Assembly (NCBI GenBank): GCA_963783475.1
Contig: CAWANW010000018.1
Coordinates: 22,285-86,284 of the forward strand
Direction: 5' to 3'
DNA length: 64,000 bases
Source of the DNA: an uncultured Deinococcaceae bacterium
GTDB lineage: Bacteria > Deinococcota > Deinococci > Deinococcales > Deinococcaceae
In this document: positions 42,250 through 43,345 of the stretch, one piece after another
Position numbering within the stretch: the first letter of the stretch is position 1
Layout: every line of letters starts with the position of its first letter
The notes under the pieces: model-generated
The model's database searches: none
What the model saw: only the letters and a program-made list of their open reading frames with translations
What the model was told of the DNA's origin: nothing
Made by a program: the position numbers and the translations under genes

Positions 42250-42283
42250 GTTCTCTGCCCTAATGCTTCTTAGGCAAGAGAAC
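42250..42283. other. Candidate tyrosine-recombinase site: 14-6-14 imperfect inverted repeat with a dif-like 11-6-11 core
   Basis: GTTCTCTGCCCTAA-TGCTTC-TTAGGCAAGAGAAC; 12 of 14 arm positions complementary; ends 69 nt upstream of the recombinase ATG. Confidence 0.6.
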
Positions 42284-42352
42284 AGGGTAGACTGGCCAAG
42301 TGCACCCCGCCCTCTCTTTTTCGAGCCTGATCCAATCCAGGGAGTCCCGCGC

Positions 42353-43345
42353 ATGACGCTGGAGGTCTACCGGGGCGATCTGCTGGCACGCAGCCGGGAA
42401 TGGACCGGGCTGCACGACGACGAGCTGCGTCGCCGCGCCGTGCGGGCCGCTGCCGAAAAGGACGCCTCGCAGCTGGTCTCGCTGACGGTGGCGTATCTGG
42501 CCCACGGCGGCGGCAGCGGCGTGCTGACCAGCCCACGCACCGTGGAGGCCTACGCGCTGGGCGTGCGTCAGTACGTGGATTACGCCGCCGCGCAGGCGGT
42601 GGGGGTGCTGCGGCCCGGCCGACACGACGCCCAGGGCTACGTGAACGCCATGCTGGCGGCGGGGCGCAAACCCGCCGGGGTGGGCCTGAAGGTGGCGGCG
42701 GCCAGTTGCCTGTACCGGGCGCTGCGCTGGGCCGGGGCCAGCGAGGCTGATCCCTTCCGGGACGTGCGGGTGCCCAGGGACCCCACCCCCGGTATTGTCA
42801 AGCGGCCACCCTACTCCGAAGACGAGCTGGCCGACGTGATCGACTGCGCGGACGTGCAGGCCAGGTTCCTGCTGTTCCTGACGGCCCACGCGGGGCTGCG
42901 CATCAGTGAGGCGCTGGCGCTGGAATGGACGGACCTGGACGAGACCGCGCGCCGCATCAATGTGCGCTCAGGCAAGGGGCGCAAGGGACGCATCGTGGCC
43001 ATGAGCAGCAGCCTGGGCCGGGCCTGCCGTCAGTACCGCGCGCTGTTCGCGCCGGGGGGTCCGGAACACATGGACGGCAAGCGCACCACGCCCGCCACGC
43101 AGGTGTTCCGCTATGGCCGGGTGATGACGGCGCGCTACCACGTGGAAAAGGCCTTCCGGGCGGCGGGCGTGCCGTTCCGGGGTTTTCATCCGGGGCGCAA
43201 GTACGCCGGAACGCGCCTGCTGCGGCAGATCAAGGACTTCGGGCGGGTGGCCGCGCACCTCGGTCACGCGTCGGTGGACACCACACGCAAGGGTTACGCG
43301 CAACTTGCGGCAGATGACCTCAAGGACGATCTGCTGGGCTGGTAA
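42353..43345 (+). CDS. Tyrosine recombinase (XerC/D-like) with intact catalytic set
   Basis: GLRISE (R), GKGRK (K), HPGR (HxxR), LGHAS (H), TTRKGY (Y). Confidence 0.93.
   Translation: MTLEVYRGDLLARSREWTGLHDDELRRRAVRAAAEKDASQLVSLTVAYLAHGGGSGVLTSPRTVEAYALGVRQYVDYAAAQAVGVLRPGRHDAQGYVNAMLAAGRKPAGVGLKVAAASCLYRALRWAGASEADPFRDVRVPRDPTPGIVKRPPYSEDELADVIDCADVQARFLLFLTAHAGLRISEALALEWTDLDETARRINVRSGKGRKGRIVAMSSSLGRACRQYRALFAPGGPEHMDGKRTTPATQVFRYGRVMTARYHVEKAFRAAGVPFRGFHPGRKYAGTRLLRQIKDFGRVAAHLGHASVDTTRKGYAQLAADDLKDDLLGW

Follow-up and report, generated by a model that had tools for sequence, protein, structure and literature searches.

The window analyzed here, a 64,000-nucleotide stretch of DNA from an uncultured Deinococcaceae bacterium, carries a gene for a lone tyrosine recombinase and, ending 69 bp before its ATG, a 34-bp palindrome that resembles a dif recombination site (Table 1). 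An initial annotation made from the sequence alone had described this palindrome as having the 11-6-11 geometry and TAA/N6/TTA borders of dif, with nearly symmetric 14-bp arms, and the sequence bears this out. The two arms are complementary at 12 of their 14 positions, and the 6-bp spacer between them is nonpalindromic and bordered by TAA and TTA. Both mismatches fall at positions 5 and 6 of the 11-bp core, which are the least constrained arm positions across the family of recombinase-site pairs described below.

Table 1. Positions of the candidate site, the putative promoter element, and the recombinase gene in the window
Feature	Position	Strand	Details
dif-like recombination-site candidate, 34 bp	42250..42283	.	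GTTCTCTGCCCTAA-TGCTTC-TTAGGCAAGAGAAC
Left arm	42250-42263		
Asymmetric central region	42264-42269		TGCTTC
Right arm	42270-42283		
-10-like hexamer	42288..42293	+	TAGACT; 4 nt after right arm; putative promoter function
Tyrosine recombinase gene, 330 aa	42353..43345	+	ATG start, stop at 43345; orthologue of D. radiodurans DR_A0155

The palindrome occurs once. A second copy was not found in the window (0 chance matches expected, 100 shuffles), and, with up to 3 mismatches allowed, the genome (3.63 Mb in 20 contigs) yielded no other copy, full or half. Only 37 TAA-N6-TTA motifs are present in the whole genome. When these were ranked by the complementarity of their flanking 14 bp, the most palindromic were C19:19161 (14/14), the window site itself (C18:64534; 12/14), and C17:54386 (11/14, tied with an unrelated site on C9), and three of the top four, those on C17, C18, and C19, are sites directly upstream of three recombinase paralogues. 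Two other TAA-N6-TTA palindromes, C9:191,269 (11/14) and C16:15,907 (10/14), adjoin no recombinase gene.

The recombinase matches the Pfam family Phage_integrase (PF00589; 59 bits, cutoff of 27) and the SAM-like N domain (PF02899; core-binding). An alignment of 44 orthologues shows no variation at the catalytic residues R183, K208, H279, R282, H305, and Y315. The protein has only core-binding and catalytic domains, with no arm-binding domain, which is the makeup of a simple (Xer-like) tyrosine recombinase, and it carries an extra, mostly helical N-terminal extension of ~55 residues. An AlphaFold2 model (mean predicted local distance difference test [pLDDT] score of 80.7) matches XerA, IntI, and XerH across both domains, and the closest solved structures by sequence and fold are those of archaeal XerA (5hxy, 8.8e-10; 4a8e), followed by IntI, the Tn1549 integrase, and XerH. 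By sequence, the recombinase is nonetheless outside every curated Xer family (XerS, XerC/D, and XerA), scoring 66 bits against a cutoff of 335 for XerC (TIGR02224), 48 against 330 for XerD (TIGR02225), 52 against 220 for XerA (NF040815), and 21.2 against 267 for XerS (NF003462). The genome encodes no XerC or XerD, with every tyrosine recombinase in it scoring far below the curated cutoffs, and it does encode an FtsK with a gamma domain.

A tblastn search found family members in 66 plasmid-collection records, 65 of them from Deinococcus, mostly with one copy per record. Orthologues at 72 to 94% identity reside on secondary replicons of 195 to 541 kb (megaplasmids or chromosome II), among them p380k of Deinococcus sp. 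AJ005 (93.6%), D. wulumuqiensis, D. radiodurans chromosome II (81.8%), D. gobiensis P3, D. ficus pDFI2, and D. proteolyticus pDEIPR01. The D. radiodurans orthologue lies between hutU and pstS, which identifies it as DR_A0155. This distribution indicates that the window belongs to a chromosome II-like replicon, in keeping with the earlier assignment to a Deinococcus secondary replicon. The genome has three ParB homologues, on contigs C9 (chromosomal), C16 (chromosome II-like; 69% identical to the ParB of AJ005 p380k), and C14 (a third). Together with the three recombinase-site modules, these suggest three replicons with one module each. In genome G010, different family members are found on C1, C3, C4, C6, and C7.

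Arm conservation upstream of orthologues had been named beforehand as the observation on which the proposal would stand or fall, and the arms are conserved. The AJ005 site, GTTCTCTTACCTAA-TGCTTC-TTAGGTAAGAGAAA, lies 72 bp upstream of the gene and is followed by TAGAAT; a D. arenicola-type contig with a 93% identical gene has ATTCTCTTACATAA-TGCTTC-TTAGGCAAGAGAAC, also 72 bp upstream and followed by GGGTAGACT. The spacer TGCTTC is thus identical in the window and its two closest relatives. In most other members of the clade, a cognate 11-6-11 site heads the recombinase transcription unit. Clade members at a greater distance have related sites, which read ATCTTACCTAA-N6-TTAGGTAAGAT in D. grandis and G015, ATCTTGCCTAA-N6-TTAGGCAAGAT in AB2017081, ATACCAACTAA-N6-TTAGTTGGTAT in G008, TTCAGGCATAA-N6-TTATGCCTGA in NW-56 and QL22, and TTTTCACCTAA-N6-TTAGGTGAAAA for the C19 paralogue of the same genome as the window and in G001 and G014.

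Linkage of site and gene extends across the family. The best upstream 11-6-11 score reached at least 10 in 51 of 96 family members, compared with 1 of 96 control regions, the controls being coding and downstream regions of equal length. Site types coincide with protein clades in an IQ-TREE phylogeny of 47 members with sites. Protein and arm distances are correlated (Mantel Spearman r = 0.36; 0 of 2,000 permutations), and pairs of members at <15% protein distance differ at a mean of 2.2 of 22 arm positions, compared with 11.7 for pairs at >45%. The window pair is a member of a Deinococcota-wide family rather than an oddity of one replicon. We then treated the two arms of 38 aligned sites as the strands of a helix. 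Complementarity held at 90.9% of arm positions, a percentage that is inflated by the choice of sites by palindrome score. Such selection leaves intact the observation that different clades have different, internally symmetric arms. Double-sided arm changes numbered 110 cells, versus 36.8 ± 4.8 in shuffles (0 of 500), and the covariation score was 0.64, versus at most 0.155 for slid registers. Across the aligned sites, TAA and TTA are invariant and the 6-bp center is free. Such coevolution of symmetric arms with the protein would be expected of a site bound on both arms by a homodimer.

One clade has a different site form, CCAAGAGTTAA-N6-TTATCTATRGG, which is asymmetric, conserved, and located 2 to 8 nt before the ATG (L089, L087, L120, and L123, from G010:C6, G016:C52, QL22 unnamed5, and D. 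wulumuqiensis pDrdI). A relative of this clade on D. aetherius pDAETH-1 has the perfectly symmetric site CCCATAGATAA-N6-TTATCTATGGG.

A chromosomal clade of the family, 45 to 50% identical to the window protein, carries the near-invariant site CGTTGATAA-GGCATG-TTATCATCGG 4 to 10 nt before the ATG. In complete chromosomes, this module lies 178.5° from dnaA in G021 and 176.4° in G010 C1, and it lies 179.5°, 169°, and 180° away in G026, G030, and G037, each from another family of the order. Members outside the genus share the architecture; one of them has TATTCCCGTTAA-GGGAAA-TTAACGGGAATA 16 nt ahead of its ATG. In G021, the 190 kb to the left of the site have a GC skew of −0.051 and the 210 kb to the right a skew of +0.035, and the cumulative skew has its minimum in the 10-kb bin that holds the site and its maximum at dnaA (G021:C1, ~189.9 kb and 1.83 Mb; loci L144-L183). 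Relative to the E. coli convention, this sign is inverted; a published assignment for D. metallilatus agrees with it, with the maximum at the DnaA-box cluster and the minimum at ter (PMC8116681). No gene-strand bias was found around the G021 site. The position of the chromosomal clade at the terminus strengthens the analogy with dif.

Several smaller observations concern this chromosomal module. In vitro, D. radiodurans FtsK binds GGGCAGGG. In G021, this motif simply follows the inverted GC skew and is directed away from the putative dif, so another motif probably orients FtsK in Deinococcus. The chromosomal-clade xer gene at G000:C17:53,442-54,419 (L006) stands beside a conserved dif-like site and is split by a frameshift exactly at its HxxR motif, which reflects either an assembly error or a broken chromosomal recombinase in this strain. 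Among viral contigs, the chromosomal dif pattern was found only in two unrelated low-GC contigs, and no element of the type that integrates by exploiting Xer (IMEX) was found.

On secondary replicons of 300 to 420 kb, the motif YTAA-N6-TTAR occurs 0 to 2 times per replicon, and in two species the candidate site is detached from the gene. The D. proteolyticus site of clade A, TGTTTCTTCCCTAA-GATTAC-TTAGGGAAGAAGAG, is the only well-palindromic YTAA-N6-TTAR on its 315-kb replicon, which has one weaker match; it lies 16.6 kb from the recombinase gene, adjoins no recombinase-like gene, and is 172° from ParB, with the gene at 153°. In D. wulumuqiensis R12, GGATTCTTATCTAA-GACCGC-TTAGGTAAGAAAAA is the only YTAA-N6-TTAR match on a 324-kb replicon and lies 11 kb from the gene, at 176° from ParB versus 170° for the gene. 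Over 23 complete secondary replicons, the recombinase gene lies on average ~124° from ParB, compared with 90° under a uniform distribution (uncorrected for relatedness), and in 14 of the 23 it is at least 128° away (176° on G010 C3 and 174° in D. peraridilitoris).

Taken together, these data lead us to propose, with a probability of about 70%, that the palindrome is the cognate site of the downstream recombinase and that the two form a private, single-recombinase module of the Xer/dif type that resolves dimers of a chromosome II-like replicon. The same module probably resolves catenanes and probably represses itself. A dimer-resolution system had been suggested from the outset, and it is now backed by conservation of the site, by the orthologues on secondary replicons, and by the chromosomal clade at the terminus. 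Binding, cleavage, resolution, autoregulation, and any dependence on FtsK are what we infer from established tyrosine recombinase chemistry and from XerS, XerH, and XerA. By this model, two recombinase monomers would bind the two near-symmetric arms of 11 to 14 bp, and two directly repeated sites on a replicon dimer would synapse as a tetramer. Tyr315 would cleave at the borders of TGCTTC, the asymmetry of which would fix the orientation, and two ordered strand exchanges through a Holliday junction would yield two monomers. Occupancy of the site would also repress transcription of the recombinase gene. With its own paralogue and its own arm sequence, each replicon would be resolved specifically, and recombination between replicons would be avoided.

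In addition to the inflated pairing percentage noted above, several observations weigh against this proposal. DR_A0155 is preceded by a 59-bp upstream spacer with no palindrome (NZ_OV024759.1 35,029-36,021), and nothing site-like was found upstream or downstream of it. The only YTAA-N6-TTAR motifs on D. radiodurans chromosome II are an unrelated one and a weak candidate at 365,321, AGCTTGCCTAA-CGGGCG-TTAGGTTGCTG, which has 6 of 14 arm positions complementary and is the only clade-like motif on that replicon, ~82 kb from DR_A0155; the site of D. radiodurans may have degenerated or relocated. A DR_A0182-like degenerate recombinase gene is located 220 bp downstream of the D. wulumuqiensis site, which may be the operator of that gene. 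Several family members lie near ParB (35 to 42°), and on AJ005 p380k, the closest complete replicon, the site is 129° from ParB rather than 180°. Neither p380k nor C18 gave a terminus signal from GC skew, GGGNAGGG polarity, or an unbiased 8-mer scan: GC skew held no usable ori/ter signal on p380k or on contigs C17, C18, and C19 of the fragmented assembly, and neither the GGGNAGGG/GGGCAGGG polarity nor the 8-mer polarity scan was significant on p380k. Finally, where other genes have been inserted before the recombinase, they are always downstream of the site, which stays at the head of the transcription unit, and an operator would behave likewise.

DR_A0182-like proteins, annotated as "site-specific integrase," are conserved and ~280 amino acids long (G000:C1:10,921-11,766, L131:2230-3084, and L132:1816-2640). 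Their first catalytic arginine is missing, with FQVAE replacing LRISE, and they look like degenerate tyrosine recombinases. We considered this protein as the partner of the D. wulumuqiensis site and rejected it, as it is barely related to the window protein (E = 0.036) and is missing that arginine.

The strongest alternative, which we nevertheless consider unlikely, is that the palindrome is merely an autoregulatory binding site and that the protein recombines elsewhere or not at all. The site lies just upstream of a conserved -10-like hexamer, and the paralogue L002 of the same genome, AJ005 (L040), and L184 have TAGACT or TAGAAT at the same offset. TAGACT stands where the initial annotation placed it; its reading as a promoter element stays conjectural, as a sigma-70 scan found no two-hexamer promoter. 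If it is a -10 box, the site would cover the -35 and spacer region of the recombinase gene's promoter. The chromosomal clade has its right arm, TTATCAT, 4 to 10 nt before the ATG, where the -10 of a leaderless promoter would be, and, as noted above, the site precedes the whole unit even when extra genes are inserted. Given the overlap of the site with the promoter region, its occupancy probably also represses transcription, and an operator function in addition to recombination is likely. Operator function by itself, however, leaves unexplained why the chromosomal clade lies opposite dnaA in five chromosomes, at the point where the skew switches in G021. It also does not account for the retention of dif geometry, with a variable, asymmetric 6-bp center between invariant TAA and TTA, for the full set of catalytic residues that is invariant in the recombinase, or for the detached D. 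proteolyticus site, which has been kept away from the gene and nearer to 180° from ParB. The 11-kb separation in D. wulumuqiensis is a weaker case against it because of the degenerate recombinase-like gene nearby.

The genes found between site and recombinase (L187:80-1793 in Deinococcus sp. KSM4-11; also L185, L186, and L103) are varied: KSM4-11 has a MazE-PIN pair, D. aestuarii and D. aerius have small open reading frames (ORFs), and QL22 has a gene for a pRiA4b-ORF3 protein. Insertion of the MazE-PIN toxin-antitoxin pair after the site would place resolution and addiction functions in one transcription unit.

We regard as quite improbable a second alternative, in which the pair is the integrase and attachment site of a mobile element or integrative plasmid and serves integration and excision rather than dimer resolution. 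Public records do annotate the gene as "site-specific integrase," the neighborhoods of orthologues vary between species, some of the replicons that bear the gene are mobilizable, and Thermus phages encode a related recombinase. Against this reading, no second full or half site is present in the genome and the protein has no arm-binding domain. As the initial annotation noted, the locus holds no phage or transposon cargo: the flanking genes encode a Na+/H+ exchanger and an ABC ATPase, genes for AnmK and DUF1175 lie further upstream, and no phage, transposon, or conjugation genes were found near the recombinase. Moreover, the gene is present at one copy per replicon, in vertical-looking clades that are kept across species, and the chromosomal clade is fixed at the terminus. 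A DNA inversion switch, in which the recombinase would invert a segment between two inverted sites and which had been raised as an option at first, is very hard to credit: the site is present as a single copy in the window and, at up to 3 mismatches, in the genome, and the resemblance to the NCBIfam tyrosine-type invertase model (NF007371) spans 36 residues at 18 bits, against a cutoff of 222.

The proposed resolution module can be compared with several known systems. The initial annotation likened it to XerS/difSL of streptococci and lactococci, in which XerS has 356 amino acids and the 31-bp site has an 11-bp central region (PMC5357621, PMC1914069). The likeness holds for the layout, since both have a single recombinase with the gene beside the site as one module, no XerC/D, and an FtsK with a gamma domain. 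It fails for the protein, which is 330 amino acids long and scores far below the XerS cutoff, and for the 6-bp central region, and Deinococcus has many paralogous pairs, one per replicon, with different arms. A dif site beside a single xer gene is a feature of both XerS/difSL and XerH/difH (PMC5357621, PMC9765430). XerH/difH of Helicobacter and Campylobacter (PMC3325230, PMC5357621; 5jk0, 5jjv) likewise combines a single recombinase with a dif near its gene and nearly palindromic arms, and the fold is similar (Foldseek E of ~3e-5), but identity in the structural alignment is ~18%, the phylum is another, and replicon-specific paralogues have not been described for XerH. Archaeal XerA/dif (5hxy, 4a8e; PMC2958812, PMC3646895) offers the best match among solved structures, with a single recombinase and a 28-bp 11-6-11 dif, whereas the XerA sequence model scores well below its cutoff. 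XerA is reported to be independent of FtsK, and a review assigns its dif to the region of the replication terminus without describing linkage to the gene. XerL/dif of the Legionellales (PMC9765430) is another single-recombinase system specific to one lineage; its inverted-repeat arms are long and uninterrupted and, as for the chromosomal clade, lie at the terminus. In Legionella, a distance of >400 kb separates xerL from dif.

XerCD/dif, found in E. coli and most bacteria, shares the 11-6-11 core, the TAA-N6-TTA borders, the single copy per replicon, and, for the chromosomal paralogue, a site at the terminus. XerCD uses two recombinases on asymmetric arms, and one pair serves all replicons, as on both Vibrio chromosomes; in Deinococcus, by contrast, each site has one enzyme and each replicon a pair of its own. 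Cre/loxP-type modules of large plasmids and plasmid prophages resemble the window pair in having a lone tyrosine recombinase, a palindromic site beside the gene, and a low-copy replicon, while Cre itself is only a distant fold match (E of ~3e-3, 13% identity). Natural families of Cre/lox-type pairs have mutually distinct sites, and lox-type sites have a 13-8-13 layout. Differently armed paralogous pairs, one per replicon, are thus unlike the XerS, XerH, and dif systems and like private Cre/lox-type modules.

A description of Xer/dif in Deinococcus or Thermus was not found in the searchable literature and is absent from Kono 2011, Castillo 2017, Smyshlyaev 2021, and the Legionellales paper. A 2022 study of FtsK (PMC9764985) lists DR_0513, DR_A0075, DR_A0155, DR_A0182, DR_B0104, and DR_C0018 as putative recombinases, deferring their study, and lists "putative dif sites" for later work; it also reports that D. 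radiodurans FtsK activates E. coli XerCD in vitro. We tentatively suggest, at a little under even odds, that Deinococcota hold an undescribed single-Xer lineage, with dif in the xer promoter, that has radiated into orthogonal pairs for private resolution, one per replicon. If so, site-specific fusion would be avoided among many co-resident, polyploid, and highly recombinogenic replicons, and the family would be a natural library of orthogonal pairs of recombinase and 34-bp site with a readable arm-recognition code. These findings bear on how chromosomes and megaplasmids are resolved from dimers in the polyploid, multireplicon, recombinogenic Deinococcus, and they name concrete candidate sites, namely, the chromosomal dif at the terminus and the clade-specific sites of secondary replicons, including that of the window. 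The solution they suggest, an own enzyme and an own site for each replicon, is unlike that of Vibrio and other multipartite genomes, in which a single XerCD pair acts on every replicon. The arm and protein clades, which covary, make up a natural data set on recognition specificity and may also supply orthogonal recombination tools. Outside the Deinococcus replicons, the Thermus phages Lalka8, Lalka27a, and Lalka27b (PQ109075-PQ109077; ~70 kb) encode a recombinase 35% identical to the window protein, which is possibly a plasmid-prophage resolution system.

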